A stretch of DNA of 32,534 nt from a virus (IMGVR_UViG_3300035510_000237), one strand, 5' to 3'; shown: positions 2,900-32,534, numbered from the stretch's first letter. Translations and numbers: made by a program. Notes: a model not told the origin generated them from the sequence alone.

Positions 2900-3340
2900 T
2901 CAACCTCCACCATGCACAAGATTCAGAGTAAGCCCATTACTATTGATTGTTTTGAGATTGATGATTATACACCACTTACTACAACTCTTCCATATGGAGA
3001 AAATCAGACAATCGAAGCAAATGTTTTTGAGGGTATTACAATTCCTTATCTTGAGGCTCTTCGTAATAATTATAATGAAACCAAAGATAAGAGAATCTGG
3101 AAGGAGCTTATTAGAGCGCTCCCTGAATCTTGGCTTCAAACTCGAACTGTTACTATGAATTATGAAAATCTTCTTAGTATGTGTTCAAAGAGTCAACGTA
3201 GATTCCATAAGCTAACTGAATGGTCTGGCGATAGCGAAGATTTCGTTACACCTAGTTTTATTAAATTTGCGCGCAGTCTGCCCTATGCGCAAGAGTTCAT
3301 TTTTATTGATGAAGGGCAACAAGAACCAGTAAATGAATGA
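2900..3340 (+). CDS. Thy1/ThyX-like protein, exon 2 (5' boundary approximate)
   Basis: Reads ...WKELIRALPESWLQTRTVTMNYENLLSMCSKSQRRFHKLTEW, which matches the ThyX C-terminal pattern R-x-LP-x4-TR-x3-T-x-N-x3-L-x6-R-x3-H-x3-E. TGA stop at 3338-3340. No canonical RHR(X)7S motif was located. Confidence 0.45.
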   Translation, partial: STSTMHKIQSKPITIDCFEIDDYTPLTTTLPYGENQTIEANVFEGITIPYLEALRNNYNETKDKRIWKELIRALPESWLQTRTVTMNYENLLSMCSKSQRRFHKLTEWSGDSEDFVTPSFIKFARSLPYAQEFIFIDEGQQEPVNE

Positions 3341-3347
3341 GTTAATA

Positions 3348-3376
3348 TTGACTTTTTAAATTAAATATGATATAAT
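3348..3376 (+). promoter_or_regulatory. sigma70 promoter with extended -10 (TTGACT-17-TGaTATAAT)
   Basis: TTGACT at 3348-3353 and TATAAT at 3371-3376. The motif ATATGATATAATATATATA is repeated at 5934-5952. Confidence 0.5.
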
Positions 3377-3411
3377 ATATATACAAGATATAGAAAGTGA
3401 GTTTTTAGAAA

Positions 3412-3768
3412 ATGACTAAAAAGCAAGAATTTATCGAGTATGTAGAAAATTTAATTAAAAATCAAAATGAACCAATTGAAATGAGTGAAAGTGTTCGGTT
3501 TTATTGGGAAGCCCTTAAAGCTGGACAAAACACAAAAGAAAAACCACTTTTTACGGATAATGGAAAACTTGTTCTCCAGTATATGAAGGATAATCTTGAT
3601 ACTGAAATGTGGAAATCTAAGGATATTGCAGAAGGCTTGTTTGTTTCTTCTCGTACTGTATCTGGAGCTTTCCGCAAGTTGGTATCAGATGGCTTTGTAG
3701 AGAAGGTTGGAGAGAATCCAACAATATATACATTAACCGAAGATGGAAAGAATATTGTAATTGAATAA
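3412..3768 (+). CDS. winged-helix DNA-binding protein (118 aa), paralog of 614-877
   Basis: ATG at 3412, TAA stop. HTH-like region KDIAEGLFVSSRTVSGAFRKLVSDGFVEKV. No TAG. Confidence 0.55.
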   Translation: MTKKQEFIEYVENLIKNQNEPIEMSESVRFYWEALKAGQNTKEKPLFTDNGKLVLQYMKDNLDTEMWKSKDIAEGLFVSSRTVSGAFRKLVSDGFVEKVGENPTIYTLTEDGKNIVIE

Positions 3769-3789
3769 TTAAAAAAAGGAGAAAATATT

Positions 3790-4734
3790 ATGTCTAAGAA
3801 AATGATTAATGAATGCCATATCGAAGGATTTCTCTATAATCATACTCTCAAGGAGAAGGTAACTGGCGAGACTTCTAAGAACCCTGGTACTCAGTATATT
3901 ACTGGCGAGGTAGAGATTGCTACCGATAATAACCTGACAAATGTTGTAAAGGTGCATTTTACTTATGTGACCGCGATTACAAAGAGTAAGCAGCCCAATG
4001 CAACTTATACGACACTGAAGAATATCATTGATGGTAAGCTGAAGTCTATTATGGGCGATGGCATTGAGAATGCAGCTAAGCTTCGTATTGATACTGCTAT
4101 TGGTCTAAGAGAGTTCTATTCTGACCGTAATGGTAATGAAGAGCTTGTTAGTGTTAAGCGCAATGAGGGTGGTTTTGTTCATAATGCTTCTCTGCTGAAT
4201 GAGGATGAAAATAAGCGTAATACCTTTAAGACAGATATGGTCATTACAAATGTTGTCCATGTTGAAGCAGATGAAGAGACTTCTACTCCTGAGAAGGGGA
4301 TTGTTAAGGGCTTTGTCTTTAATTTCCGCAAGGATTTGCTCCCTGTGCAGTTTACAGTGCTGAATCCTAATGCTATCAGTTATTTTGAGAGCCTTGAAGC
4401 ATCTCCTAATACGCCTGTATTTACTCAAGTTTGGGGCCGTCAGGTATCTCAGACTACTGTAAAGCAGACTATTACTAAGTCTGCTTTCGGCGAGGATGAC
4501 GTTAAGGAAACTGTAACTTCTCAGAAGGATTTTGTCATCACTGGTGCCCTTGCTGATACTTATATTTGGGATGATGAATCTACTATCCTTGCATCTGAGT
4601 TCCAGACCGCTCTTAATGAAAGAGAGATTACCCTGGCAACTCTGAAGAAGAATGCCGATGAGTATAAAGCTAAGAAGGCCGAGACTGCAAATGTGAGTGC
4701 TGCGGCTCCTGCGGCTGGCGTTTTTAACTTTTAA
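3790..4734 (+). CDS. hypothetical protein (314 aa), adjacent to the Sak4-like ATPase, possibly a ssDNA-binding partner
   Basis: RBS AAGGAG, ATG at 3790, TAA stop. No TAG. Codon usage is GC-richer (AAG, GAG, CTG). Function is inferred only from position. Confidence 0.55.
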   Translation: MSKKMINECHIEGFLYNHTLKEKVTGETSKNPGTQYITGEVEIATDNNLTNVVKVHFTYVTAITKSKQPNATYTTLKNIIDGKLKSIMGDGIENAAKLRIDTAIGLREFYSDRNGNEELVSVKRNEGGFVHNASLLNEDENKRNTFKTDMVITNVVHVEADEETSTPEKGIVKGFVFNFRKDLLPVQFTVLNPNAISYFESLEASPNTPVFTQVWGRQVSQTTVKQTITKSAFGEDDVKETVTSQKDFVITGALADTYIWDDESTILASEFQTALNEREITLATLKKNADEYKAKKAETANVSAAAPAAGVFNF

Positions 4735-4753
4735 TTAACCTTGAGGTGGCATA

Positions 4754-4900
4754 ATGAAGGGAAATAATTATAAAAAGGAAAGAACTTCATTATGCCACTA
4801 TTGCGATTATTCATGTCGCAAAGGGCATAAATGTAAATATTATAAAAAGTATGTGAAAAGTAAATTTTGTAAGAAACGGAGAAAATATAATGGCAATTGA
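4754..4900 (+). CDS. small basic Cys-rich peptide (48 aa), zinc-ribbon-like
   Basis: RBS GAGGTGG, ATG at 4754. Reads MKGNNYKKERTSLCHYCDYSCRKGHKCKYYKKYVKSKFCKKRRKYNGN. Its TGA at 4898-4900 overlaps the Sak4 start at 4890. Confidence 0.35.
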   Translation: MKGNNYKKERTSLCHYCDYSCRKGHKCKYYKKYVKSKFCKKRRKYNGN

Positions 4901-5885
4901 TTTGAAAAATCTACAGCCCCATAAGGTTAGTAGAGATTTAAGTGGATATATTACTTACATTTATGGCGCTGAGAAGGCTGGTAAGACCACCTTTGCCTCT
5001 TAGATGCCTTCTCCTCTGATTCTGGCATTCGAGAAAGGTTATAATGCTCTTCCTGGCGTTATGGCGCAGGATGTCACGACTTGGGGCGAAATGAAGCAGG
5101 TTCTTCGTCAGTTGAAGGACGAAGATATTAAGAATATGTTTAAGTCAGTTATTATTGATACTATTGATATTGCCGGCGGCCTTTGTGAGCGCTATGTTTG
5201 TTCTCAGGCAGGAGTTGATTCCATTGGAGACATTCCTTATGGTCAAGGTTGGACAAAGGTAAAGAAAGAGTTTGAAGATACTTGCCGCACTATTACACAG
5301 CTTGGTTATGCGCTTGTATTTATTTCTCACTCTAAGGATAAGACTTTTAAAGCAAAGAATGGTATTGAATATAATCAGACAGTTCCTACTTGCTCCAGTT
5401 CTTTTAATAATATCGCCAAGGATATGGCTGATATTTATGCTTATGCTGAGAAGTATACTGGCGAAAATGGAGAAGGCAAAGTTCGACTGGTAATGCGTTC
5501 TCCTGATAATAGTGCTGAGACTGGTTGTCGTTTTAAGTATATTAAGCCCATTGTTGAAGAGTTTAATTATGAAAATGTCGTTCAGGCTTTGAATGAGGCC
5601 ATTGACAAGGAAGCTGCTCTTAATGGCGGTAAGTATATTACTAATGACCGTGAAAGCATTGTGACTAAGGCTGAGTACGATTATGATGCTCTGATGAAGG
5701 AGTTCCAGGAGTATGTTGGTGCTCTTATGAATAAGGACCAGGCATACTTTGGACCAAGAATTACTCAGATTATTGAGAAATATCTGGGTAAAGGTAAGAA
5801 GATTTCCGAGGCTTCTATTGACCAGGCAGAGCTTATTAATCTGATTGTAACAGAGATTAAAGAAGATTTGATGGCTGCTGAGTAA
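4890..5885 (+). CDS. Sak4-like RecA-fold ATPase (AAA_24 family recombination protein; 331 aa, 1 TAG)
   Basis: Walker A YIYGAEKAGKTTFAS(TAG)MPSPLILAFEKG and Walker B-like VIIDTIDIAG. The TAG at 5001-5003 joins the upstream start to the 5004-5885 track ORF. Confidence 0.75.
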
Positions 5886-5977: not shown

Positions 5978-6640
5978 ATGCCACATTAGGTACTTTGTTC
6001 TATTTGTCGAGAAAGATTTGATAGAGATAAACAAGAATTTGTACAAACTGGCTCAAGGCGGTATGCTCATGCCGATTGTGCTCTCAGAGAAGCAGAAAGA
6101 ACTAAATCGCCAATTCCAGAAATTATTAATCCTTTAGATTCGGTAATTTGTATTTATTGTCGCAAACCTTTACATAGAAAAGATAAAGATTGCGTAAAAA
6201 TCACCGATACAAAGTATGCTCATGCAGATTGCGTAGAAGTTGAAAATAATAGAGAATTGACAGATTCAGAAAAATTAGATAGATATATTGAGAATCTATT
6301 TAAAACTGATTATGTTTCTGCTAGAATTAGAAAACAAATTAATTCATTTATTGAAGATTATGGATTCTCATATTCTGGGATTTTAAAATCTTTAATTTAT
6401 TTTTATGAGGTAAAAGGCAATTCTATAGAGAAATCTAAAAATGGAATTGGAATAGTTCCTTATATTTATCAAGATGCAAAAAACTATTATTATTCAATTT
6501 GGTTAGCCAAGCAAAAAAATGAGGCAAAACGAATTGAAGAATATGTTCCAGAAGAAAAAGAAATACATATTAAATCGCCGCAAAGGAATGTTAAAAAACG
6601 TCCTTTATTTAGCTTTTTGGATGAAGAGGAGGAATTTTAA
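5978..6640 (+). CDS. zinc-finger protein with duplicated CxxC...YAHADC motif, possible replication organiser (220 aa, 1 TAG)
   Basis: ATG at 5978 after GGGAG. Reads MPH(TAG)VLCSICREKF...RRYAHADC and a second ...CIYCRKPL...KYAHADC. It sits immediately upstream of the DnaB-like helicase. Confidence 0.5.
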
Positions 6641-6661
6641 CTGGCTTCAAAATATGTTGAT

Positions 6662-7912
6662 GTGACCAGTATAATTCAGGTAATTGGTTGTGTATTTAAT
6701 ACACCACAACTTTTGGATTATACTGATAAGTATACAATTATAGATGAAGATTTCCCCAATTCATTCCATAAAATTGTATTTGGGGCAATTTATAAACTCC
6801 ATGAATTAGGGTCAGAAAAAATTACGCTAGAAACAGTTTCAGATTTCTTATCTTCTCGCCCAAAAAGCTATGCCATTTATCAAAAAGAAAAAGGCGAAGA
6901 ATGGTTAATGAATGCGTCAACTGCCGCAGTTGAGTTATCTTTTGATTATTATTATCATAGAATGAAGAAAATGACTTTGCTTCGAGCTTATGATAATTGC
7001 GGTATTGATGTCAGTGATATTTATGACCCAGACAATATTTTAGATACAAAAAAGAAACAGCAACAAGAAGATTATTTAGATAATTCTTCACTTGACCAGA
7101 TTGCTGATAAAATTGATGAAAAGATTAGTTCTATACGACTCCAATATGTTGATGACGCTTATGGAGAAGCATATCAAGCAGGTGATGGAATTATGGAGTT
7201 AATTGATAAATTTAAAGAAGCTCCAGAAGTAGGTATTCCATTATATGGTCAGTTAATTAATACGGTTACGCGAGGCGCAAGATTAAAAAAGTTTTATCTT
7301 CAATCTGCGGCCAGTGGTGTTGGTAAGACTCGTAGCATGATTGCGAATGCTTGTTTTATTGCTTGTGATAAGATTTATGATGAATCATTCGGATGGATAA
7401 AGAATGGGACAAAAGAGCCTACTTTATTCATTACAACAGAGCAGGAACTTGAAGAAATTCAAACTATGATGTTAGCTTTTCTTTCAAATGTAAATGAGGA
7501 ACATATCTTAAATGGTTCTTATGAGGGCAATGAAGAAGAAAGAGTGCGGGAGGCCGCAATTTATCTTTCAGAAAGTCCTTTATATATTGAAGAACTTCCT
7601 GATTTTTCATTAAAGGATGTTGAAGATAGAATAAAGAAGAATATAAGAGATCATGATGTAAAGTATGTGTTTCATGACTACATTCATACCAGCCTCAAGA
7701 TTCTCGAAGAGATAACTCGTCGCAGTGGTGGAATTAAACTCCGAGAGGATAATGTCTTGTTTATGCTATCTACAAGGCTTAAAGATATGTGTAATAAATA
7801 CGGTATCTTTATTATGTCCGCAACTCAGTTAAATGCGGACTATCAAGAATCTAAAACTCCTGACCAAAATCTACTTCGTGGTGCAAAAAGTATTGCTGAT
7901 TGGACAAAGTAA
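6662..7912 (+). CDS. dnaB: DnaB-like replicative helicase, exon 1 (start codon uncertain: GTG at 6662 or earlier)
   Basis: A DnaB N-domain pattern is followed by Walker A SAASGVGKT and ...IMSATQLNADYQESKTPDQNLLRGAKSIADW. That last segment aligns to the DnaB motif SQLNRSLEQR...SDLRESGSIEQDAD. The ORF then stops in TAA at 7910-7912, at the point where the intron begins. Confidence 0.8.
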   Translation: MTSIIQVIGCVFNTPQLLDYTDKYTIIDEDFPNSFHKIVFGAIYKLHELGSEKITLETVSDFLSSRPKSYAIYQKEKGEEWLMNASTAAVELSFDYYYHRMKKMTLLRAYDNCGIDVSDIYDPDNILDTKKKQQQEDYLDNSSLDQIADKIDEKISSIRLQYVDDAYGEAYQAGDGIMELIDKFKEAPEVGIPLYGQLINTVTRGARLKKFYLQSAASGVGKTRSMIANACFIACDKIYDESFGWIKNGTKEPTLFITTEQELEEIQTMMLAFLSNVNEEHILNGSYEGNEEERVREAAIYLSESPLYIEELPDFSLKDVEDRIKKNIRDHDVKYVFHDYIHTSLKILEEITRRSGGIKLREDNVLFMLSTRLKDMCNKYGIFIMSATQLNADYQESKTPDQNLLRGAKSIADWTK

Positions 7913-9075
7913 TTGAATAATTTACTATCAATTTTTATATAGATTAAGGGATAAAGCGAAAATCTATATAAGGAGCGATAAATATGAAAAAAATAGAATT
8001 AACACAAGAACAAATAAGCCAAATATTAAACTTATATAAGAATAATTACTCTCAACAAAAGATTGCTAATATTTTAGAGGTATCTAGGCCTGTTATAAAA
8101 AGAGTTCTTACCGAGAACGAGGTTCTGTTAAGAGAAAGAACTCATAAATATAAAGCAGATTATGATATTTTTGAAAATATAGATACTCCAGAAAAAGCTT
8201 ATTGGTTAGGTTTTATAGCAGCAGATGGTTGTAATTATTAGAGAGAGAATAATTCTTCAATAATCATTTCTATAAACTAGAAAGATATTGACCATTTAGA
8301 GAAATTTAAAAAATTTGTAAATACTAATGCTGAAATAAAACTTTTTGAGCAAGATATGGGGTATTCAAATAAGACCTAGATGTGCAAAATAGTTTTAAAT
8401 AGTAAAAAAATGAGTAATGATTTATATGATAAAGGTATAGTGCCTAATAAAAGTTTAATATTAGATATTCCAAAAATAGATGAAAAATATTATTATCCAT
8501 TTATTCTAGGATATTTTGATGGTGATGGTTCTATAAGTAAAACTAATTGTTATAATAATTATTGTATTAGCTTTCAAGGAACTAAAGAAATTTTAAATTG
8601 GATAAATAATTTATTTGAAATTTCAAAATTGGATAAAAGATAGAAAGAAAGTTCTAAGAATAGTTATTATATTAGGTGTGGTGGAACTAATAAACCATAT
8701 AATATATTAAAATAGCTTTATGATTCTTGTGAAGTTCATTTAGATAGAAAATATAAATTATTTAAAGCTTTGGAAACAGTCGTCCTTAGTAGAAATACTA
8801 AGTGATTATTAGACCGAGAATTGCTGGAAAACCCTTAGAGCTAATTAAACTACAACGTAAATATGAAATAAAATTAAGCGTGAATGTTTGAAAATTAATT
8901 AGATTGGGTAATCAGCAGCCGAGCCTTGAAGAGAGGAAGGTTCAACGACTATCTGGTAGCGCAGAGTAGCAGAAATGCGAAGTACGGTCTACCTAAACTC
9001 TTAATAAAAGAGCAGGGTAAAGATATAGTCTACTCCTTTATGAAAATAAAGGTATTAAGGAAAATTGATTATGGT
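7903..9075 (+). mobile_element. group I intron (approximate bounds) in dnaB, carrying a LAGLIDADG homing endonuclease ORF
   Basis: The core R element GGTTCAACGACTATC (GACTAT at 8947-8952) and the S element AAGATATAGTC (ATAGTC at 9025-9030) match the IA-type consensus. A P9-like hairpin CCTTTA...TAAAGG lies at 9036-9053. A 10-bp hairpin at 7936-7970 sits just before the endonuclease RBS. Confidence 0.6.
7984..8805 (+). CDS. LAGLIDADG homing endonuclease with N-terminal HTH (273 aa, 5 TAG)
   Basis: RBS AAGGAG, ATG at 7984. Two LAGLIDADG motifs, LGFIAADGC and ILGYFDGDGS. TGA stop at 8803-8805. Internal TAGs at 8239, 8278, 8380, 8641 and 8713. Confidence 0.75.
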
Positions 9076-9339
9076 AGTATTTTACTTCTTGTTAAAGATG
9101 AAGATTTGGAAGCTCTTGAACCAGTTTTGTCGGCAAATGTCTTTGACAAACCAACAATTAAAATGTCTGTTTATAAAAATAGACGAGGTAAATATAAGGG
9201 TGTTTATTTATGGTGTAGAGCTGATTTGGGAACCTGTAGAATAAATCCTATGTTTTGTACCACCTGGGATTATGAAGTAATAAATGTAAATAATATTCGT
9301 ATTATTGTCGATGGTGACAATGAACAAAATTGGAATTAA
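9076..9339 (+). CDS. dnaB: DnaB-like helicase, exon 2 (5' boundary approximate)
   Basis: Reads ...SILLLVKDEDLEA...KNRRGKYKGVYLWCRADLGTCR, which aligns to the DnaB C-terminus ...DADIVAFLYRDDYY...KQRNGPVGTV-L-F. TAA stop at 9337-9339. The track ORF beginning at TTG 8926 is intron sequence read in the same frame. Confidence 0.6.
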   Translation, partial: SILLLVKDEDLEALEPVLSANVFDKPTIKMSVYKNRRGKYKGVYLWCRADLGTCRINPMFCTTWDYEVINVNNIRIIVDGDNEQNWN

Positions 9340-9353
9340 GGAGAAACTAATTT

Positions 9354-9545
9354 ATGAATATGCTTGATTTTAAAAGACCTATTGAATATAAGATGCCCAA
9401 TGCTATTGCTGTAGGATATTTGAAGGCTAATAAGGCAATGAAGTCTAAAGACCCAAATCATGCTAAGTCTCAGGAATATCTTTGTAAGATTGTGAATGAG
9501 GAATTTGGAATTAGAGGAAATTGCGTTAAAGTAATTACTTTTTAA
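9354..9545 (+). CDS. hypothetical protein (63 aa)
   Basis: RBS AAGGAG 7 nt upstream of ATG. No TAG. Confidence 0.4.
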   Translation: MNMLDFKRPIEYKMPNAIAVGYLKANKAMKSKDPNHAKSQEYLCKIVNEEFGIRGNCVKVITF

Positions 9546-9546
9546 T

Positions 9547-10647
9547 ATGCTGTCTTTTGATAAAGATGAAATTAAGGAGCAGTTGGATATAGCCGATATA
9601 TTCCAACTGCTTTTTGATTTCGGGGGAAATCCCAAGTATACAGATTTTGGAATTATTTCTCAGACCATCTGCCATAATAAGCCAGGAGAAGGAAGTTATA
9701 AACTTTATTACTATGAAAATAGTCAAGCTTTTTATTGCTATACCGATTGTGGATTTTTGGATATTTACACTCTTGTAATTAAAGTCGCAGGTATTCAATT
9801 CAATAAAAACTATAATTTAAATGATGCCATTAGGTGGGTAGCAAATAGATTTAATATTAGTGGTAGTTATGAAAGTGAAGCTAGTGAACAATTAGAAGAT
9901 TGGGTTTATTTAGAAAATTATAAAAGGATTGAAGAAATAAATCCAACTTCAAATGAGCAGATCACCTTAAAAGAATATAACAATAAAATTTTATCTCGAT
10001 TAAATTATAATGTTAATATTACACCTTGGTTAAATGAAGGAATTACTCAAGAAGTCTTAGACTTGGCTATGATTGGTTTTTACCCTGGAGGCGACCAGAT
10101 AACGATTCCGCATTTTGATAAAGATAATCGTTTTATAGGTTTGCGCGGCCGTACACTATCTCTTGAAGATGCTGAAAAATATGGGAAATATCGACCCGTT
10201 AAAGTAGGAAAACAACAATTCAATCATCCTCTTGGAATGAATCTTTATGGTTATAACTGGAATAAAGACAATATCCGAAAAATGAAAAAAGTTATTGTTT
10301 TTGAATCTGAAAAATCGGTTTTAAAATATGCTTCTTATTTTGGATGGCAAAATAATATTTCAGTTGCGTGTTGTGGCAGTAATATATCTTCTTATCAAAT
10401 GCGACTATTATTCGATTTAGATGTCGAAGAAGTAATTGTTGCTTTTGATAAGCAGTACCAAGAGTTAAACACTGACGAAAGTAAACAATGGAAAAATAAA
10501 CTTTTAAAGATTTATAATAAATATCACCAATATTGCAATATTTCTTTTATGTGGGATAAAGGTCATTTACTTGGTTATAAAGATTCTCCAATTGACGATG
10601 GAAAAGAAATTTTTCTGGAGCTATTTAAAGAAAGGGTTATATTATAA
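9547..10647 (+). CDS. dnaG: DnaG-like DNA primase (zinc-binding plus TOPRIM domains; 366 aa)
   Basis: Zinc-ribbon motif CHNKPGEGSYKLYYYENSQAFYCYTDCG and TOPRIM-like segment VIVFESEKSVLKYASYFG...VACCGSNIS...EVIVAFDKQ. Confidence 0.7.
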   Translation: MLSFDKDEIKEQLDIADIFQLLFDFGGNPKYTDFGIISQTICHNKPGEGSYKLYYYENSQAFYCYTDCGFLDIYTLVIKVAGIQFNKNYNLNDAIRWVANRFNISGSYESEASEQLEDWVYLENYKRIEEINPTSNEQITLKEYNNKILSRLNYNVNITPWLNEGITQEVLDLAMIGFYPGGDQITIPHFDKDNRFIGLRGRTLSLEDAEKYGKYRPVKVGKQQFNHPLGMNLYGYNWNKDNIRKMKKVIVFESEKSVLKYASYFGWQNNISVACCGSNISSYQMRLLFDLDVEEVIVAFDKQYQELNTDESKQWKNKLLKIYNKYHQYCNISFMWDKGHLLGYKDSPIDDGKEIFLELFKERVIL

Positions 10648-14607: not shown

Positions 14608-14772
14608 TTGAAAGGATATTTAGAAAAGGAACGAGACTTTGGTACTATTTATGATATGCCAGACCCAAAAGATGATAAAGATGCAGAAGATTGGCTAAAA
14701 ATTCTTAAAAAACTATTAACAGAATCTCCAAATCCAGAAGGAAAAGTTCTTACTTTTGATGAAGTTAAATAA
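14608..14772 (+). CDS. hypothetical small protein (54 aa)
   Basis: TTG start after AAAGAGG. TAA at 14770-14772. Confidence 0.35.
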   Translation: MKGYLEKERDFGTIYDMPDPKDDKDAEDWLKILKKLLTESPNPEGKVLTFDEVK

Positions 14773-14782
14773 GAGGTATAAT

Positions 14783-15454
14783 ATGGATAACATTAAATAT
14801 CAATCTAATTTTGGCACTAAATTTACACCTTATGATGGTGAAGCAATTGACATCAGTGGGTCTGTTTATGTCACAGATAGTAATTATATATCACAATTAG
14901 TTAATAGGTATAATGAAGAAGAGCTATATGAAAAGAGAAGGCAGGCTCTAAAAGCTGGAGATAAGATTGTTGAAGAGATAACTGATAAACTTAAAGAATG
15001 GGAAAAATGCGCGGCTGAGGCCCAAGCTTGCCGCCATGCTATTGAGTTTTTAAAAGTGCCGGTAGCTAAGCATAGCAATAATAAATGGGAAATTTCTGAT
15101 GATTATATTGGCGGAAGCGAATATACTAGAAAACATATTAGGCGAGAAAGCATTAGTAATATGACGTATAAATTAAATATAAATATTGCTTATGATAAAT
15201 CTATAGGTTGGGACGAGACAAAATATTTACGATGGCGTGTTTATGGTGCAGCAATATTGAATACTCCTATAACTTCAAAAAGCTACGTTGTTTGCGATTT
15301 TGACCGAGAGTTTTGGACAAGAGAAGAAGCCTATGATTTTGTTGAAGAAATTAAATATATCTATGCGGATTGGTTCAAAAGTATTTCTCCTCCAGTTGGC
15401 GAATGGTATGAACATTTTAGCATTGATGGAGTTTTGCTTCCTGGCTATCATTAA
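14783..15454 (+). CDS. hypothetical protein (223 aa)
   Basis: RBS AAGAGG 6 nt before ATG 14783. This start is preferred over the upstream ATG at 14756, which lies inside the previous gene. Confidence 0.5.
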   Translation: MDNIKYQSNFGTKFTPYDGEAIDISGSVYVTDSNYISQLVNRYNEEELYEKRRQALKAGDKIVEEITDKLKEWEKCAAEAQACRHAIEFLKVPVAKHSNNKWEISDDYIGGSEYTRKHIRRESISNMTYKLNINIAYDKSIGWDETKYLRWRVYGAAILNTPITSKSYVVCDFDREFWTREEAYDFVEEIKYIYADWFKSISPPVGEWYEHFSIDGVLLPGYH

Positions 15455-20689: not shown

Positions 20690-22918
20690 ATGGCTAAAAT
20701 CATTAAACGTGATGGTTCATTGGCTACTTTTGATAAAGATAAAATCATAAATGCTATTAACAAAGCATTTATCGAAATAGATGGAACTTTATATGAAACT
20801 GATACTGCAAAAGATATTGCCGCAGATATTGAAGATAAGGTCTTAGAAAGTTCTGCAACTATAACAGTTGAAACTATTTAGGATTGGGTAGAAGATTATT
20901 TAATGGCTTCCGATAGAAAAGATGTCGCAAGGTCTTATATTCGTTATCGTTATAAGAAAGAAGTTGTAAGAAATCTTCATAGTGATTTCTTTGATGCTAT
21001 TGGAGAAAAACTTTCAGCTAGTAATGTCCAAAATCAGAATGCTAATGTAGATGAACAATCTTTCGGCGGGCGCATTGGAGAAGCCGCAAGTGTAATGACA
21101 AAGAATTATGCTTTGACTCAAATAGTTTCTGAAATGGCTAGAAAGAACCATGAAAATAATGAAATTTATATTCATGACTTGGATAGTTATGCTGTCGGTA
21201 TGCACAATTGTTTGTCAATTCCTTTTGATGATTTGCTCGCCAAAGGATTTAATACCAGACAAACAGATGTGCGGCCAGCCAATAGCGTAAATACAGCTTT
21301 CCAACTTGTTGCAGTTATTTTCCAGCTTCAATCTCTTCAGCAGTTCGGCGGCGTGAGTGCTACTCATATTGATTGGACTATGGTCCCATATGTAAGAAAG
21401 AGCTTTTATAAACATTATGCTAATGGTTTAAAGTATTGTGAACATCAAGAAAAATATATTGATGGATTTACGAGCGAAATGTCAATACATGATAGTGCGT
21501 ATTATGAATATAGCCCATTGGCATATGACTACGCCATGGATATGACAGTTAAAGAAATCTATCAAGCAGTTGAAGGTATGTATCATAACCTCAATACTCT
21601 TCAAAGCAGAAGTGGCAATCAGTTGCCTTTTACTTCTATTAACTATGGTACGTGCACTTTGCCAGAAGGTAGGATGATAACTAAGGCTCTTCTTGAAGTC
21701 TCTCTTGAAGGACTTGGAAAGCTTCATAAAACTTCTATTTTTCCATGTGGAATTTTTCAATGTATGAAAGGTGTAAACCGCGCACCTGGCGACCCTAATT
21801 ATGACTTATATCAGCTAGCATTAAAATCTACAGCACAAAGATTATACCCTAATTACGCGAATGTTGATTGGAGCGGTAATGCTGGCTATGATATTAACGA
21901 TCCTAGAACATACTTCTCAACGATGGGTTGTAGGACCGCCAATGGCTGGGATATTAACGGTTTTGGCCAGCTTAAAGACGGTAGAGGCAATATTTGCCCA
22001 GTTACTATTATTATGCCAACGTTGGCTATGGAGGCAAAAGAAATGGCTTCTAATAGTGATTTTCAAGTTGAGCCTGAAAAAGCTATAATTCGTTCTTTTA
22101 TGACTTTACTTGATGCAAAAATCTGTGAAGCTAAGGATATGCTTCTGGAGCGTTTTAACTGGATTTGCGCGCAAGACCCCTCTAGTGCAAAGTTTATGTA
22201 TGAGAACAATGTAATGGCTGGTTATGTTCCTGAAGAAGGAATTAAAAGCGCGCTAAAACATGGCACTTTAGCAATTGGACAACTTGGTTTGGCTGAGACA
22301 CTTCAGATTCTTGTCGGCTGTGACCATACAGAAGCAAAAGGCATGGAATTAGCTAAGACGATTGAACAGCTATTCAAGGATAGATGTGCTCAGTTTAAAG
22401 AAGAATATCATTTAAATTTTGGTGTATATTATACCCCAGCAGAAAATTTATGCCATACGGCTTTAAAGAAATTTAAAAATAAATATGGTGTAATTGAAAA
22501 CGTATCTGATAAAGATTTCTTTACTAATAGTATTCATGTTCCTGTATGGAAGGAAGTTAGTCCTTTTGATAAAATTGATATTGAAAGTCAACTAACTGGA
22601 TATAGTTCTGCGGGCTGTATTACTTATGTTGAGCTAGATACAAGTGTAAAGAAAAATTTAGAGGGACTTGAAACCATTGTTAATTATGCTATGGACCATG
22701 ATATACCATACTTCGCTGTAAATACAATTAATGACACTTGTTTAACGTGCGGATATACAGATGAAATAAATGATGTCTGTCCTATCTGTGGAGGAACAAA
22801 AATTCAACAATTACGTAGAGTGACTGGATATTTGACAGGTTCGTATAAAGATGCTTTTAACAAAGGTAAGATCCAAGAAACCGAAATGCGAGTTAAACAT
22901 ACTGGGAGACTCGAATAA
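20690..22918 (+). CDS. nrdD: anaerobic ribonucleoside-triphosphate reductase (class III RNR; 742 aa, 1 TAG)
   Basis: N-terminal ATP-cone MAKIIKRDGSLATFDKDKIINAINKA. C-terminal zinc ribbon CLTCGYTDEINDVCPICGG and glycyl-radical motif RRVTGYL. The TAG at 20879-20881 fuses the track ORFs. The ATG at 20690 follows GGAGG. Confidence 0.85.
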
Positions 22919-23604
22919 TGGGTGTTATATATAAATATGAAAATAATATCAACCATCATATTTATATTGGGCAAAGTGTAAATTTAAAAAAGAGGATTAG
23001 AGAACACAAATGCGCGTTCTCTAATCCTAATAACCCAGATTACGACTTCCCAATTCATCGAGCATTAAGAAAATATGGAGTTGAAAATTTTACTATTTCT
23101 ATCTTAGAAGAAGTAGAAGATAACGCACTTGATGAAAGAGAAGTATATTGGATTGCTTATTATGATTCATACAAAAATGGATATAATGCCACCCCTGGAG
23201 GACAAAACGGAGGAAGCTATAATGGGAAAGAAGTTTGTTTATATGATTTAAATGGTAACTTTGTAAGAAGTTATAAAAATGCTAAAACAGCTTGTGAAGC
23301 AATAAAAGTTTCTTATTCTACAATTTAGCAAGTTTTACATCAAAAAAGACCGACCTGCAAAGGCTATTAGATAAAATATAGAGATGATAATAGAGAGATA
23401 AAAAAGTTTAAATCTCGTCAAGGAGGCGCTATACCTATTTATTAGTTAGAAAAAAATACTAATAATATAATTAAAGAATGGGATAGCGCACAATAGGCCG
23501 CTAGGGAATTAAACTTAGACGCTTCTACCATTACAAAATGTTTAAAAGGTAAATTAAAAAGTCATGGCGGTTATAGTTGGAAATATAAGGAGGAATAGAA
23601 ATGA
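22918..23604 (+). CDS. free-standing GIY-YIG homing endonuclease (I-TevI-like) with C-terminal NUMOD/HTH region (228 aa, 5 TAG)
   Basis: GVIYKYENNINHHIYIGQSVNLKKRIREH reads YIGQS with Gln as CAA. C-terminus ...LNLDASTITKCLKGKLKSHGGYSWKY. The start overlaps the nrdD stop (TAATGG) and its TGA overlaps the nrdG ATG. Confidence 0.75.
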
Positions 23605-26770: not shown

Positions 26771-27205
26771 ATGGTGGAATTTGTCATAAAGTACTGGGTT
26801 GAATTTGTATTTGGTTTAATCGTTACTGGCGGAGGTTTGTTCTTAAAACGCTTTTGGACTTTGACCAAAGAAAATTAGCAAAAACAATAGGACGAATTTT
26901 ACAGTAAAATTAAAGAAGAAATCAACAAAAGTACTGAATAGTCCCAAAAGGATGATAGTCTCTTACAGGGTGAAATTGATGACTTAAAGACAGCCATGGA
27001 AGCTCTACGCAATGGAGTATTATCTCTCTAGGGTAGATAGTTCAAAGCAGAATGTATGAGACTCTTAGAAGAGGGACACGAAATCACGATTGAAGAATTT
27101 AAAGACCTAGATAAAGACCATGATGTGTATAACGCTTTAGGCGGAAACCATAATGGCGATCACCTTTATGACTTAGTAAAGAAAAAAGTGGAGAATAAGT
27201 TGTAA
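26771..27205 (+). CDS. single-pass membrane coiled-coil protein (144 aa, 6 TAG)
   Basis: RBS AAGGGGGAG. N-terminal TM helix VEFVIKYWVEFVFGLIVTGGGLFL. TAA at 27203-27205. Confidence 0.45.
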
Positions 27206-27212
27206 AAAAAAT

Positions 27213-27250
27213 AAGGGGACTTAGTAATTAAACTAAGTCCCCTTATTGTG
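27213..27250. terminator. bidirectional rho-independent terminator
   Basis: 13-bp perfect stem AAGGGGACTTAGT/ACTAAGTCCCCTT. The T-run on the minus side is TTTTTTTT and a weaker one lies on the plus side. It separates the convergent genes at 26771 (+) and 27251 (-). Confidence 0.7.
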
Positions 27251-27736
27251 TTAGGTATTAATCTTTGTGGCTAAAATTGCTATTTTCTTCTGAAGAAGTT
27301 GCTTTTCTTCAGCAGTAGCTTCTTTAATCATTTCCATTATATCGTCGGATAAATCTTGTGCGTATTTTTCCAGCTCTTTCATTTCCATTTCTGCGTCATG
27401 TGCCATCTTAGCTTCCATATATTTTGTTCTAGTGTGCGGGCTTTTACCCATCATAGTAGCATCAGTATGGTCGTGGCTAGTTCGAGAAGTAGTATCATAA
27501 GAAGTATAATGCTCACGGGTCATGCCTCCCTCACGGCAAGACTGGTGGCAATATATTTCAGATTCTGAACCTTCTTCCATTGCCCTAATAGCAGTATGAT
27601 AATACATAGCTTCTTCTAAGTCTTTTATCATATCTATTGCTTCACCAAGTTCTTTGGCGTCCACGCAATCTAAATGGCTCATTTCAGTAGCGACTTTTTC
27701 CATTAAAGTCTTTTTCATCCATTTAAGTTTTTCCAC
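27251..27736 (-). CDS. hypothetical Met/His/Glu-rich protein (161 aa)
   Basis: RBS AGGGTGG 7 nt before GTG at 27736. An alternative ATG lies at 27718. No TAG. Confidence 0.45.
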   Translation of the reverse strand: MEKLKWMKKTLMEKVATEMSHLDCVDAKELGEAIDMIKDLEEAMYYHTAIRAMEEGSESEIYCHQSCREGGMTREHYTSYDTTSRTSHDHTDATMMGKSPHTRTKYMEAKMAHDAEMEMKELEKYAQDLSDDIMEMIKEATAEEKQLLQKKIAILATKINT

Positions 27737-27738
27737 TG

Positions 27739-28158
27739 TTAAGCCACCCTTTCAATAATAATATTTGCGTGCTCCACACTAATGGACTAATCTCCTACAT
27801 TCATGACACTAATCTAAGAGCAGCAGTTTTTTGGTACATCCACAAATACAGAAGAAGAAACATTATTAAAATCTTCTACATCTCCTGGAGTGGAAATCAT
27901 AGTTGTAGATACTATTGGCTCACCATCAATCGCTATTGCTAAACTGGCAGGACCGGCAGTCCCACCAGTAGGTATAGCAATATTGGCACCAAAAGTAATA
28001 CGGTATCTAGCTCGACACTATTGCGTCAAGCCACGTAAAGTTACTAAGCCGCTACCAACCCGATGTAGCATACTACAGTTGCCTGGAATTACAACTGTAG
28101 TAAATAAAATATCTTGATTAGTAGAGACTGTCTGAACAGCATTACTTGTAAGCTCCAT
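27739..28158 (-). CDS. hypothetical beta-rich protein (139 aa, 3 TAG), possibly a C1q/BclA-C-terminal-like domain
   Basis: RBS AAAGGAG 9 nt before ATG (plus CAT 28156-28158). Reads ...GANIAIPTGGTAGPASLAIAIDGEPIVSTTMISTPGD. Confidence 0.45.
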
Positions 28159-28175
28159 AATCTTAATCTCCTTTA

Positions 28176-28889
28176 TCAAGCAGCGCAATTACAGCCGTTA
28201 TAGGTATAACCATATAACTGAGATGCTGGAAATGCTGGAATAGGGGTTGGGCGCAGTTGATTGACCAAATACTGGTTCTGCGAGCACTGTGAAAGCTAGA
28301 AGTTTGCCCCTAAAAGTTCAGTATTCTTAGCTTCTAAACGGTCGCGTAAATCCTGCATAGTATTAGAATTAATCAGAGCGCGAGTAGCTTCGCCTTCCTG
28401 ATGAATAGCGTTAGTGATATCGCAGGTATTCTGCGCAGCAGCATAACGGTTCTCCAGGATATTTTGCTTTACATCACAGCAACAAGATTGCATAGAATAG
28501 CGATTGTCTGCTAGATTTTGATTTACAGTGTCAAAGCCCTGCGCAACAGAACTAAAGCCTGTACACAAATCACGCTGTAAATTTCCAAAATTTGTTAAAA
28601 GAGTAGTATTATTGCTGTAGAATCCATCACATAAACCCTATGAGAGTCCACGAACACCATTTTCAACCTACTGGAAATTCATATCTTGCGCGAGTTCGCC
28701 TCTTGTTAAAGCTCCCTAAGCAGATGAATTATTGCTGCCCCAGGCACCATTACCGCCCCAGCCCATAAACATGAACAGGAACAATATGATAATCCACCAT
28801 GCGCCTCCATTACTCCCACCGAAACCATCTCTATCGCCAGTTACTGCGGCGAGGTCAGATAAAGAATAACCACTTGCTTCGTTAAACAT
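28176..28889 (-). CDS. membrane protein with Gly/Trp-flanked TM helix and Cys-rich C-terminal region (237 aa, 4 TAG)
   Basis: RBS AGGAGG 9 nt before ATG (plus CAT 28887-28889). TM segment GGAWWIIILFLFMFMGWGG resembles the YjcZ-family TM motif. Cys clusters CCCD and YNGCNCAA. Confidence 0.45.
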
Positions 28890-28915
28890 AAAAAATTGCC
28901 TCCTAAAAATATATA

Positions 28916-29149
28916 TTATTTAATCCCAAGCTATTGCTTAAAGGAATTAAATTCGGTATCAAAATCTACGCCTTTCTATTGGCATAGATTACGAGCAATT
29001 TGTTCAATCTCCGCAGTTTTATTATTCTTGGCTAAATTTAATAAATTACTTCCTAATGGAGTATCTGCCATTTGAGATTCTAACATATTCAACACAAATT
29101 GTTGAGGATTACTGCCCATCTACAGAAGGGTCATTGGATTTATATTCAC
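28916..29149 (-). CDS. hypothetical small protein (77 aa, 3 TAG)
   Basis: RBS AAGGAGGG 6 nt before GTG (plus CAC 29147-29149). TAA at plus 28916-28918. Confidence 0.4.
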
Positions 29150-29161
29150 TTATATCCCTCC

Positions 29162-29539
29162 TTAAAAATTATATTCCGTAGATTCATTTGTAGAAGGAAT
29201 CTACGGAAGGGCAGATTTGATCTGGTTAATGGCTGACTCAAACTCTTCTCTTGTTATGTAATTGCCCATATTATTATTTATTTGTTCAGTTGTGGGCATT
29301 TCCTTTAATTCATACATATTGAAAAGCGCTGAGCCATCCATCCCAATCTGTTTAGTATAAATGCGTTTATTTGCCAAATCTGGAAAAAAGAATACTGACC
29401 CATCAAAATCAATAGTGGTGGCTCTTACTTCGTCCAATGAGGATACTGGCCTACCTTTTAAATTATACTATAGCTATTGTTGATAAGTGTTCTATGTCCG
29501 GTATGGCGTTTGTTGCTATGGATAGTAGTTAGTATACAT
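29162..29539 (-). CDS. hypothetical protein with Gln/Tyr-rich N-terminus partly encoded by TAG (125 aa, 5 TAG)
   Basis: ATG (plus CAT 29537-29539) after AAGGAA. Reads MYTNYYPQQQTPYRTQNTYQQQLQYN..., where four of the Gln codons are TAG. An alternative ATG lies at 29581. TAA at plus 29162-29164. Confidence 0.4.
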
Positions 29540-29659
29540 TTTATTTCCTTCTTTCTAACAGTTCTTCTCTAACCCTTCCATAGCTATATAAAAAATAAAT
29601 GGGATAAATTTACTAATTTTGTCCTAAAAACTTAAAAAAATTTTTAATAAAATATAACA

Positions 29660-29716
29660 GAAAAATGGGGAACCGCTCTACCTTTAAAGAGCGGTTCCCC
29701 ATTTTATTTTTTATTA
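29660..29716. terminator. bidirectional rho-independent terminator
   Basis: 13-bp perfect stem GGGGAACCGCTCT/AGAGCGGTTCCCC with T-tracts on both strands. Confidence 0.75.
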
Positions 29717-30106
29717 AGAAACCTTTAATTGATTAACCTGTGACTCAATTTTTTGATTGATATAAGTCTCTAAATCTCCAACAGCAGAAGATAAATAGCT
29801 TTGTGCCTCTTGGCTCAGGATTGTCATAACTGCTTGATAAGTTTGCTAGAAAGCAGCTTTTTGAGCTTCTGTGTCAAAACTACCTTGAGCTTTTAAAGAA
29901 TTTACATATGTTTGATTTGTAGCAGTTACACATTCTGTAATTGTCTAATCTAACATCTCAATATATTTCTTAGTTGTTTCATCCTCTATATTAGAAGTAA
30001 CTTCCTCAGTCTTAGAATTTATCCATTTAACAAAGAAACTCGTTAAAATGGTTAAAAGTGGAATTAAAACAATCTCAAAAATTTCAGTGATTAATTCTTG
30101 TGCCAT
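29714..30106 (-). CDS. holin-like protein: N-terminal TM helix plus long coiled-coil tail (130 aa, 2 TAG)
   Basis: RBS AAGGGAGAG 6 nt before ATG (plus CAT 30104-30106). Reads MAQELITEIFEIVLIPLLTILTSFFVKW..., followed by a Q/E/K-rich helix. Confidence 0.45.
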
Positions 30107-30252: not shown

Positions 30253-30284
30253 ATTTATAGAAATTAAGAAAGGAGGAACGTATT

Positions 30285-31811
30285 ATTTCAAACAAAGTAA
30301 TTTTACTTGAATAGGGTGGAATTAACACCAATGCAGTTACTTTATCAGGCATTACTGTCTCAACATTACCGACTAAAACAGTATATGAATACGGTGATTC
30401 TTTTGACCCTACTGGCATGGTAATTACTGCGACTTATACTGATGGTACTACTGCAATAGTATCTAATTATATTTATACACCAACTTCTGTTTTAAATACA
30501 ATAGGAAGTTAGGCAGTCCTTATATCTTATAGCGAAAACGGATTAACTTATCTTAATAGTGTAACAATTACAGTAAACCGTAAAAAAATTTCTATACCTA
30601 CTTGGAAATCAAATTTAACTTATAATGGTAATACCTAGCATGTAGATGCTGAACAATATTGGAATAATTATGATTCTAGTAAAATGGTTATTAGTGGAAC
30701 TACATCTGGCACAAATGCTAGTACGTATTCCGCTTCATTTACACCAGGAAGTAATTATTAGTGGTCTGACGAAACAACTTCTGCAAAATCTGTAAATTGG
30801 ACTATTAATAAGGCTACTGGATATTTATATATAAATGGAAGTGTCAGTAGCCCAACAGTAAGTTTAGATTCTAGTAATTCTAGTTACTCTGCTACCATAA
30901 CAGGTTCAGGTACTATTAGTTATACACCTACTTCAGTGACTGGATTAACTTTAAGTCTTAGCAATGGGACTTTCACTGTTAAAGCTACAGCTAATGTTTC
31001 CTCACAAATTATTACCATTAAATGCGCGGCAAGTACCAATTATACAGCCCCTGCAAATTTAACTATTACAGTTAGCGCAAATGTTTGGTCATGGGGAGAT
31101 GAAACTGCAGTAGGCGACGCTGACTGGTGGGCTAGACTAAAGTCTTGGGCTTCTACAGCTTCTGCCACAGAAAGATCTGATTGCGTTGGTAAGAAAAAAT
31201 TAGTCAGCTTATCTACCTCAGTGCTTGGCGCTAATGCGGCTACAATGATATGTATTGGAGCTGACTAGGATGGGTCAAATACTTTAACCTTTTAGACTGC
31301 TGGAGTATTGCCCAATACAACTGCTTTTAGCTCTTCTAGTGCCGTTTGGATAGGTTCTACTGCTAGAACTTTATGTTAGAATTTCTATAATTATTGTAGT
31401 GCAAAAAATTCAATAAAAACTATTAGTAAAGGCACTTGCGCATCTACTAATAGTTCTAAAAGTGGCACAGCAACTTATAATGATGAAACAGTTTTTTTAC
31501 CATCAGAGGCTGAAATGGGTTTAGATTCTTATTCTAGCTTGACTTATAGTAATTCTACTACAAGTAACGCCGAATGTACTAAAGGATTAAAATTTAAATA
31601 TAGTTATTATAGTTCTAATACTACAAGAATTAAATATGTTATGAGCGCAGATGGTACAATTGGTTCAACAGCTGGTTATTATTGGGAGAGGTCGCGTTAC
31701 TACAACTCGGGCAACTCGAACATTGTTTGCCATGTCTACGGTGATGGATCTGCGGTCAACTCCGGCTACTACAACAGCTGTTACTTGGCCCCCGCTTTCG
31801 CCATCGGCTAA
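30285..31811 (+). CDS. DGR target (variable) protein: bacterial Ig-like domain plus Ser/Thr-rich region plus C-terminal variable repeat; putative receptor-binding tail fibre (508 aa, 7 TAG; apparent ATT start)
   Basis: GGAGGA at 30272-30277 is followed by ATT ATT, and no in-frame ATG/GTG/TTG occurs upstream. An Ig-like domain VTLSGITVSTLPTKTVYEYGDSFDPTGMVITATYTDGTT follows. Seven TAGs interrupt the frame, and the gene ends at TAA 31809-31811. The last 36 codons are the VR. Confidence 0.7.
31690..31798 (+). repeat. DGR variable repeat (VR)
   Basis: 109 nt. 92 of 109 positions are identical to the TR at 32392-32500. All 17 mismatches lie opposite TR adenines. The 3' end TTACTTGGCCCCCG is shared with the TR (IMH-like). 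Confidence 0.85.
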
Positions 31812-31885
31812 TACCAAAAGAATCAAACTCGCCGTTAATAAAAAAATCAAACAAACTTAACCATTTTAACAAAGAAAGGTAATAT

Positions 31886-32359
31886 ATGTCAGTTAAACTT
31901 AAAGATCGTCATTTAGCAAAAAAAGATTGTTTACAAAAATCCCGAGAATTAATAAATTATATTTTAATATTAACTAGACCAAGAGAATATAATGAAGAAG
32001 GAAAACAAATACAAAAACCTGGATTATTAGGAGAAGGCCAAGCTTTATCAGCCTTTGGCATAGATATATTGAAGTGTGGAAAAAGAATTCATGCTTGTTG
32101 CTTTAATGCTTGTAATATTTATATTAAAAATAAAGAGACCTATGAAGCAAGACGAGAATATTTCTATGAGGCAATTAAATATTGTGACAGTATTTTTAGG
32201 CAAATTGACTTATGTATCTTTCAATACGCTAAAAATAATAAAAAGAAAAGAAATTCTTTTTATCATTTAAGTAAATTAAACTTAACAATGAAACGTTCTA
32301 TTCAAGACAGAATGAATAGAGACAAAATAATTTATGAACATAACTATTTAAATAAATAA
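31886..32359 (+). CDS. DGR accessory protein candidate (Avd position; basic 157-aa protein)
   Basis: Located between VR and TR as Avd is in canonical DGRs. K/R-rich. No recognisable four-helix-bundle (NIAEG-type) Avd motif was seen. Confidence 0.45.
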   Translation: MSVKLKDRHLAKKDCLQKSRELINYILILTRPREYNEEGKQIQKPGLLGEGQALSAFGIDILKCGKRIHACCFNACNIYIKNKETYEARREYFYEAIKYCDSIFRQIDLCIFQYAKNNKKKRNSFYHLSKLNLTMKRSIQDRMNRDKIIYEHNYLNK

Positions 32360-32391
32360 ATGAAAAAATACAGGTTAAATTCTATTTTTTC

Positions 32392-32500
32392 GGTCGCGTT
32401 ACTACAACTCGAACAACTCGAACAATGTTTGCAATGTCAACAGTGATGGATCTGCGAACAACAACAACTACAACAACAGCAATTACTTGGCCCCCGATTA
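32392..32500 (+). repeat. DGR template repeat (TR)
   Basis: In the VR frame it reads S R Y Y N S N N S N N V C N V N S D G S A N N N N Y N N S N Y L A P D. This is an AAC/AAT-rich template. It is non-coding in situ. The reverse transcriptase is expected downstream, beyond the window end. Confidence 0.85.
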
Positions 32501-32534
32501 GATGGAGTATTTGCGTTGCGGCCTTAGTGAGCCG

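Follow-up and report, generated by a model that had tools for sequence, protein, structure and literature searches.

Here we describe a minus-strand region in a 32,534-nucleotide (nt) stretch of viral DNA (IMGVR_UViG_3300035510_000237; hereafter the window, always meaning this whole stretch), in which a gene placed by its sequence in the holin family, g1, is followed by a separate operon of five genes, g2–g6. The terminators and the holin gene of this region are ordinary; the g2–g6 operon is uncharacterized but real and very common, and its PHROG families carry no function. Comparison with related loci indicates that g2–g6 forms a mobile, self-contained module of fixed gene order in thousands of gut phages, which usually lies directly downstream of holin and endolysin genes. 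We tentatively favor the reading, with a likelihood well short of even, that the operon encodes a late membrane-anchored complex, built of a g4 stalk and a g5 knob, that accompanies lysis.

In the phage from which the window derives, TAG is read as glutamine, a conclusion that four results support. When only TAA and TGA were treated as stops, the residues contained in open reading frames (ORFs) longer than 150 amino acids (aa) rose from 6,313 to 9,706 of about 10,800 possible across the window. The three TAG codons of g5 were paired with Gln in the homologue alignment, and Gln was nearly invariant at two of these positions. TAG=Gln translations of g2, g4, and g5 retrieved database entries with 99–100% identity. 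Finally, the 33 genes whose stops were counted ended in TAA (26) or TGA (7). ORF calling with translation table 11 split all genes of the region into short ORFs, whereas TAA/TGA-only calling returned a clean gene map. A tRNA search of the window found none, hence no suppressor tRNA in the window, and a megablast search of 24.5 kb of it against a phage collection gave no match.

On this map, six minus-strand genes span 27251–30106, and the remaining long ORFs of the window all lie on the plus strand, confirming the orientation given in a preliminary description of this DNA; the sign of the GC skew switches near position 27,000. The features of the region are as follows.

29714–30106, minus strand: g1, 130 aa, 2 TAG codons
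29662–29705, both strands: bidirectional terminator between g1 and g2–g6; 18-bp stem, −33 kcal/mol, T-runs on both strands
29585–29626, minus strand: promoter-like motif of g2–g6; TAGGACAAA, 27 nt, TATATA
29162–29539, minus strand: g2, 125 aa, 5 TAG codons
28916–29149, minus strand: g3, 77 aa, GTG start, 3 TAG codons
28176–28889, minus strand: g4, 237 aa, 4 TAG codons
27739–28158, minus strand: g5, 139 aa, 3 TAG codons
27251–27736, minus strand: g6, 161 aa, GTG start, no TAG codon
27210–27247, minus strand: terminator ending g2–g6; 16-bp stem, −25 kcal/mol, z = −7.7, followed by a run of 8 T

Since g2–g6 are tightly packed, with gaps of 2–26 nt, and 174 nt including a terminator part g1 from g2, the region comprises two transcription units, g1 alone (unit 1) and the g2–g6 operon (unit 2), and not the single six-gene cassette that had been described. 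The two terminators delimiting that cassette had been reported as strong, with 13-bp stems and T-tracts on both strands. Their strength was borne out: none of 200 shuffled controls folded as stably as either hairpin, with z-scores from −6 to −9. The stem lengths (16 and 18 bp) differed from those reported, and T-runs flanked only the hairpin at 29662–29705 on both strands. This hairpin begins 9 nt past the g1 stop codon (z = −8.0 and −9.2 on the minus and plus strands, respectively). The hairpin at 27210–27247 has a T-run on the minus strand only, the plus strand having none; it also sits 5 nt beyond the stop codon of a convergent plus-strand gene (26771–27205). The same description had credited every gene with a strong AGGAGG-type ribosome-binding site, which held for g3, g4, and g5; the sites of g1 (AAGGGAGAG), g2 (GAAGGAAA), and g6 (AGGGTGG) are only moderate.

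Because the TAG codons fall at conserved Gln positions, the genes of the region belong to the recoded genome. In-frame TAG codons number 17 in g1–g5, and the share of TAG among Gln-type codons is 27% in the cassette versus 14% in the replication genes; the heavy TAG use previously noted for these genes is thus real, with the exception of g6. In recoded phages, recoded stop codons are concentrated in structural and lysis genes, and such proteins need a prior change of code (Borges et al., bioRxiv 10.1101/2021.08.26.457843). Taken with this report, the TAG content suggests that g1–g5 are expressed late.

Terminator insulation appears to be a conserved property of the module because equivalent hairpins flank it in distant relatives. 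A hairpin with a T-run lies directly upstream of g2, or of an additional gene, c0 (see below), in the relatives L004, L005, L009, and L010, in Butyrivibrio phage Ceridwen, and in Dulem virus 33; hairpins matching the position of that at 27210–27247 follow g6, or an additional gene, c2, in L009, L010, and L013. Between the upstream terminator and g2, an alignment of seven recoded relatives (L004, L005, L008, L009, L010, L013, and L015) revealed a conserved arrangement of TTGGRCAAA, about 27–33 nt, and TATAKAWAATG. Since this spacing does not fit sigma-70, the motif may represent a phage-specific late promoter. A sigma-70 promoter scan showed no enrichment over shuffles, and the 9-mer TTGGRCAAA by itself was not clearly enriched in the window.

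Homologue searches returned 4,503 clusters for g5, 4,714 for g4, and 4,616 for g2 (clusters at 90% identity), none with a Pfam domain or an informative name. We sampled 71 loci from annotated phages, metagenome contigs, and 61 genome contigs, the last mostly metagenome-assembled genomes of Oscillospiraceae, Lachnospiraceae, Ruminococcus, and other Clostridia. A local jackhmmer search over these loci detected g5 in 69, g4 in 67, g2 in 61 (upstream of g4), and g6 in 56 (directly behind g5), invariably on a single strand and ordered g2, g4, g5, g6. At the site of g3, the gap between g2 and g4 was filled in nearly all loci by an ORF of 65–90 aa containing a shared NP...(D/N)PQQ-type motif; jackhmmer detected only 15 of these ORFs. 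The order g2–g3–g4–g5–(g6) was conserved in about 60 of the 71 loci, among them recoded as well as standard-code phages of gut Clostridia. Every recoded relative examined carried the module, and nine of them shared the convergent layout of the window with its g0 (the gene at 26771–27205), RuvC, and dUTPase genes; the layout of the phAss-1 recoded phages is different.

We also collected 86 ORFs upstream of the module from 43 standard-code loci. Their most frequent Pfam families nearly all had lysis functions: three holin families (8 members), Amidase_2 (five), GH25, ELLD, CHAP, NlpC/P60, glucosaminidase, M23, and PG_binding_1. In these standard-code, mostly temperate carriers, an integrase gene lay downstream on the opposite strand in at least 10 loci. 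Additional genes often join the module in temperate phages, namely c0 (129 aa, Cys...His motif, phrog_3754), c2 (about 110 aa, HExxH, phrog_1233), and genes for small sigma-region-4/GerE-type helix-turn-helix (HTH) proteins; none of the three is present in the window.

This context raises the alternative that g2–g6 is a moron, that is, a lysogenic-conversion cargo unit that acts autonomously, is expressed independently of the late operon, and alters the host cell or spore surface or excludes other phages. As in the morons of Hendrix and co-workers, the operon has strong terminators on both sides, a conserved promoter-like motif upstream, and a genome position that varies between phage groups; in temperate phages it is placed between the lysis genes and the integrase gene, where small HTH genes often precede it. 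In addition, g5 finds its closest structural counterparts among exosporium proteins, and g4 is cysteine-rich. Unlike a moron, however, the module consists of five co-conserved genes rather than one, and its presence in all recoded relatives examined makes it look like a core function there. The TAG-rich g2–g5 of these virulent-looking phages would be translatable only late in lytic growth, suggesting a late lytic function in the phage described here and not expression from a prophage. Moreover, g2, g3, g5, and g6 have no hydrophobic segment and therefore no signal peptide or other export signal, g4 alone within the operon having such a segment. No PADLOC defense model matched at E ≤ 0.01 among g1–g6, c0, c2, c3, and g0. 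A role specific to spores, left open in the preliminary description, is disfavored by the carriers, which include phage Ceridwen of Butyrivibrio fibrisolvens, a non-sporulating host, and by g4 relatives in Bacteroides and archaeal viruses; we rejected it on this host range. We therefore consider a moron function unlikely.

We next consider the proteins of the operon, beginning with g5, whose C1q/BclA-like character had been suggested earlier and was confirmed by structure prediction. The AlphaFold model was all-beta with a predicted local distance difference test (pLDDT) score of 85. A Foldseek search against the PDB gave the C-terminal domain of F-BclA (E = 4.5e-7, TM-score 0.73–0.75) and BxpB (TM-score 0.76) as top matches together with BclA and ExsFA, and next in rank came C1q and TNF ligands (EDA, 4-1BBL); there were 103 matches at E ≤ 1e-3, and the 50 listed were nearly all exosporium, TNF-family, or C1q-type domains. 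On this model, g5 can confidently be predicted to be a free-standing, ten-stranded beta-sandwich of TNF/C1q/BclA topology. In BFVD, it matched free-standing gut-phage proteins of about 135–145 aa (TM-score 0.8–0.85), some of them called 'BclA protein'. Sequence comparison placed g5 in phrog_20016 (E = 3.5e-49); no Pfam family, including C1q and BclA_C, was found at E ≤ 1, NCBIfam likewise gave no match, and PDB sequence and profile searches returned chance matches only (E ≥ 0.2 in the profile search).

The g5 model superposes on the BclA C-terminal domain, F-BclA, BxpB, and ExsFA (TM-score 0.73–0.76), and like BxpB and ExsFA the protein would be a free-standing domain of about 140 aa without a collagen stalk. 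It comprises the domain only, with no G-X-Y repeats or other stalk, and the 120 homologues listed of the 4,503 clusters were all 139 aa long. Its invariant cysteines are C28, C48, and C112–C113, the last a CC pair; CC motifs have been reported for protomers of endospore appendages and for the connector at the N terminus of L-BclA (PMC12357932). In contrast to the Bacillus exosporium proteins, to which it has 13–19% identity and no Pfam, NCBIfam, or PDB sequence match, g5 is phage-encoded, also in phages of a non-sporulating host, and lacks an exosporium leader and collagen repeats. Mean column identity among its closest aligned homologues was 89–91%, and identity was 35–65% in the 61 loci from other genomes. 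This conservation suggests that g5 has conserved partners rather than a fast-changing receptor.

The second protein, g4, had been described as carrying a YjcZ-like, G/W-flanked transmembrane helix and a Cys-rich tail. The G/W-flanked hydrophobic segment (residues 30–46, Kyte-Doolittle peak 1.84, behind a short acidic N-tail) and the conserved cysteines were recovered, while the YjcZ relationship was not: NCBIfam yielded no family at E ≤ 1 for g4 or its 283-aa relative, and Pfam contained nothing relevant among YjcZ or tiny transmembrane family models. The invariant motifs of g4 are GLCDGFY, CCC(E/D), with CCC at 136–138, and NTC(D/E)I, and its C-terminal tail is rich in Pro, Tyr, and Cys. Structure prediction gave a monomer model of low confidence (pLDDT 49.5), too poor for a fold search, showing only long helices at 72–111 and 126–212. 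By this prediction, g4 is probably a membrane-anchored, cysteine-rich, and largely helical protein. It matched phrog_16490 (E = 2e-25), and PDB sequence and profile searches produced chance matches only. At 50% identity the g4 family still comprised 2,629 clusters, all of about 200–300 aa.

Many crAss-like phages encode proteins resembling g4, with a G/W-flanked hydrophobic segment, a CCC motif, and a CxC cluster at the C terminus; so do Bacteroides phage C3_41T2LP and viruses attributed to Methanomassiliicoccales. Records of crAss-like phages label them 'spike protein' or 'outer capsid protein/viral fiber', the Bacteroides record has a label of the 'spike protein' or 'viral fiber' kind, and the archaeal virus records call them 'hypothetical'; the crAss labels are deposited GenBank annotation for which we found no experimental basis. 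Since the g4 relatives span phages of Bacillota and Bacteroidota and viruses of wall-less methanogens, the feature shared by their hosts would be the cytoplasmic membrane. An hhalign comparison of the neighbors of g4-like genes in crAss-like and Bacteroides phages with g2, g3, g5, and g6 detected no homology.

Several side observations concern these g4-like loci. By eye, the neighbors in the crAss-like and Bacteroides phages include a beta-rich protein with a CC pair, a small R/Y/D-rich protein, and an HExxH peptidase, for which hhalign gave no support. The g4-like proteins of L070, L078, and L079 have an extra N-terminal segment (e.g. 'ALIASLMQNKGVDPNLMAMLTN') that by eye resembles the g3 motif; hhalign did not support a g3–g4 fusion. 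In L079 (Methanomassiliicoccales virus vir215; 2652–5259), a reverse transcriptase gene is followed at a distance of about 0.7 kb by the g4-like gene (phrog_16490), an arrangement similar to that in the window. In L078 (Bacteroides phage C3_41T2LP; 4489–7734), it follows a Holliday-junction resolvase gene, and the block ends in a PolyVal-type HExxH metallopeptidase that recalls the HExxH protein c2 found after g6 in L004, L005, and the temperate loci.

An elongated helical g4 and a TNF-like beta-sandwich g5, as predicted, would resemble the adenovirus fiber, reovirus sigma-1, and PRD1 P5. Modeled on these or on BclA, the operon could encode a virion-associated fiber or decoration, in which g4 forms a trimeric stalk and g5 a knob on the head, neck, or tail and g2, g3, and g6 serve as assembly chaperones. 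TNF/C1q knobs are typical tips of viral fibers, and Foldseek also matched g5 to phage tail-fiber, spike, and collagen-like proteins. In L004–L007, the module stands directly behind large tail-fiber-like ORFs on the same strand, the crAss-like relatives of g4 carry the GenBank labels just mentioned, and the TAG codons suggest late expression. On the other hand, a strongly hydrophobic, membrane-type segment is conserved throughout the g4 family; here the stalk would bear a membrane-type anchor, and, unlike in the known stalk-and-knob fibers, stalk and knob would be separate polypeptides. The module is terminator-flanked and outside the structural operon, usually following lysis genes beside an integrase gene, and it lies among early genes in Clostridium perfringens phage CPD1. 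Conservation of g5 is far above that usual for receptor-binding tips. Because the BFVD matches cover phages named Sipho-, Myo-, and Podoviridae sp., the free-standing g5 fold does not seem to be bound to a single tail type. Considering also that we found no experimental basis for the crAss labels, we regard a virion fiber as rather improbable.

Turning to the remaining proteins of the operon, we note that g2–g6 as a whole matched no family in Pfam, NCBIfam, or PADLOC. The N terminus of g2 is rich in Q, Y, and P and its C terminus is a helix, and the protein has a conserved core of some 50 aa that by eye seems beta-rich; it matched phrog_21718 (E = 6e-7), and its start is confirmed by a 125-aa database entry 100% identical to the TAG=Gln translation. 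The 77-aa g3 is Q-rich and helical by eye. Two conserved helical ends of g6 enclose a disordered, low-complexity middle that is not conserved: g6 here contains 16 M and 8 H, in keeping with the Met/His-rich protein first described, whereas in homologues the middle is R/G/Y/S/D-rich. Nothing significant was found for g6 in Pfam, NCBIfam, PHROGs, or PADLOC.

Upstream of the operon, g1 agreed with the holin-like transmembrane and coiled-coil protein expected from the preliminary description. It matched the PHROG family phrog_13712, annotated 'holin' (E = 7.7e-31), and phrog_36209, also a holin family (E = 2.9e-8). The Pfam model Holin_LLH (Phage_holin_6_1) remained below threshold (E = 0.18; 12.7 bits versus a cut-off of 24.9), and NCBIfam gave a weak ATP synthase B match (E = 5e-5). 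The protein has one N-terminal hydrophobic segment (residues 9–25, Kyte-Doolittle peak 2.26), a coiled-coil tail, and a net charge of −9. These features suggest that g1 is a holin-family protein, small, with a transmembrane segment and a charged hydrophilic C terminus. For recoded phages, Borges et al. (2021, bioRxiv 10.1101/2021.08.26.457843) reported a transmembrane family that belongs to the lysis cassette and is variously labeled holin, spanin, lysis regulator, or ATP synthase B chain, and g1 resembles this family and the LL-H-type and phrog_13712 holins in size, N-terminal transmembrane segment, coiled-coil tail, and recoded stops. It differs from LL-H-type holins in its sub-threshold Holin_LLH score, in having no adjacent endolysin gene in the window, and in the strong terminator directly behind it. 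Homologues of g1 lie immediately upstream of g2 in L009, L010, and L013.

The absence of a recognizable endolysin, remarked on earlier, was upheld: no peptidoglycan hydrolase domain was detected in the 19 window proteins scanned, and by eye the other large ORFs resemble replication genes. Nor was such a domain found within about 8 kb of the module in L004–L007. With a holin gene adjoining the operon, g2–g6 could then be a self-sufficient lysis module in which one protein, a novel effector that disrupts wall or membrane, stands in for the missing endolysin. The predicted build of g4 is that of a class III holin or an i-spanin: like T4 holin T and lambda Rz, it has a short N-tail, a single hydrophobic segment, and a C-terminal domain of about 190 aa with long predicted helices and conserved cysteines, and it is associated with lysis genes in the genome. 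However, g4 has no sequence match to the Phage_holin_T or spanin families in Pfam or PHROGs. Unlike an i-spanin, it has no lipoprotein partner, g2, g3, g5, and g6 having neither signal peptide nor lipobox, and its hosts are mostly Clostridia, with a single membrane, some relatives occurring in archaeal viruses. Moreover, g2–g6 match no catalytic motif or hydrolase family in Pfam, PHROGs, or NCBIfam. Standard-code relatives keep ordinary endolysin genes directly upstream of the module, and since temperate carriers retain them, we rejected endolysin replacement by g2–g6. An endolysin can also lie elsewhere, because the window covers only 32.5 kb and a cluster member with a window-identical fragment is recorded on a contig of 139,568 bp, possibly the whole genome. 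A self-sufficient lysis module is thus very unlikely.

A complex that accompanies lysis rather than carrying it out is the reading that we favor, on the basis of the genomic association of the module, its single membrane anchor, the cysteine motifs shared by g4 and g5, and its strong conservation. In this model, g4 would form an oligomeric, helical stalk anchored in the cytoplasmic membrane, and its Cys-rich tail would dock a g5 trimer of TNF/C1q fold via the invariant cysteine clusters of both proteins. Without signal peptides, g2, g3, and g6 would serve as cytoplasmic assembly or adaptor factors. The complex would be made late and act when the holin triggers or shortly thereafter, in an accessory role during envelope breakdown or release and not as a wall-degrading enzyme.

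Several points weigh against this model. Apart from g1, no component matches a lysis family, and the module is not needed for basic lysis, since temperate relatives hold a full holin and endolysin pair. In L004–L007, no holin gene lies between the tail-fiber-like ORFs and the module, and in CPD1, g2–g3–g4 are found among early and recombination genes. The g4 stalk rests on the low-confidence model described above, and the hydrophobic segment of g4 is almost without K or R on both flanks, so that the positive-inside rule gives no topology. The proposed g4–g5 contact derives only from gene adjacency and the shared cysteine motifs. The earlier question of whether the region is a lysis module, a moron, or a host-interaction cassette is therefore narrowed but not settled.

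In a broader and somewhat doubtful form of the proposal, g2–g6 would encode an undescribed multi-protein machine of gut viruses, with a cysteine-cross-linked g4 stalk in the membrane and a g5 knob, that is produced solely at the end of infection and serves a function new to phage biology. Such a machine might, for example, organize release, tether progeny to membrane debris or shield them there, or prevent their re-adsorption to it. In the literature, we found no function described for a protein of BclA or TNF type encoded next to the lysis genes of a phage. If g2–g6 do encode a dedicated membrane complex that is late or associated with lysis, it would be a widespread new component in how phages of gut anaerobes finish infection, and several of the commonest 'hypothetical' genes of the gut virome would gain a name. 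The question is directly testable, as cultured carriers exist in Butyrivibrio phage Ceridwen, the CPD1-type C. perfringens phages, and Bacteroides phage C3_41T2LP.

The remainder of the window consists, on the left, of plus-strand genes for replication and nucleotide metabolism. Pfam identified an AAA_24 ATPase, a GIY-YIG domain, and LPD34 among them, and we assigned PolIII-alpha, NrdD, NrdG, guanylate kinase, dUTPase, and RuvC by eye and from synteny with the Pfam-annotated L005. The last of these genes, convergent on the cassette, is the following.

26771–27205, plus strand: g0, 144 aa, 5 TAG codons, N-terminal transmembrane segment and coiled coil

It matched phrog_4257 (E = 3e-8), is kept beside RuvC in the recoded relatives, and is the third such transmembrane/coiled-coil protein of the window.

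Directly to the right of the cassette lies a diversity-generating retroelement (30285–32534 and beyond, as seen on contig L076). Its 108-nt repeat occurs as a variable region at 31690–31797, in the 3′ end of a plus-strand ORF ending at 31811, and as a template region at 32392–32499; at all 16 of the 16 mismatches, the template has A and the variable copy another base. A 157-aa ORF (31886–32359) occupies the position of the Avd accessory protein, and on L076 a gene for a reverse transcriptase (405 aa, YMDD motif, 8 TAG codons) begins about 290 nt beyond the end of the window. The target gene probably starts upstream of its first ATG (30417): by eye, in-frame Ig-like sequence extends from about 30285, preceded by GGAGG at 30272–30276, with ATT as the only possible start codon there.

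Among the replication genes, a DnaB-like helicase gene is seemingly split (6662–7912 and 8926–9339) by a LAGLIDADG-like ORF with 5 TAG codons (7984–8805), as judged by eye. GIY-YIG domains are encoded at 925–1914 (Pfam, E = 6e-10) and, by eye, at 22918–23604, and these endonuclease ORFs contain more TAG codons than the surrounding replication genes. The plus-strand ORF at 14756–15454 encodes the Pfam domain LPD34 ('large polyvalent protein associated domain 34'; E = 7e-29), which here is free-standing among replication genes.

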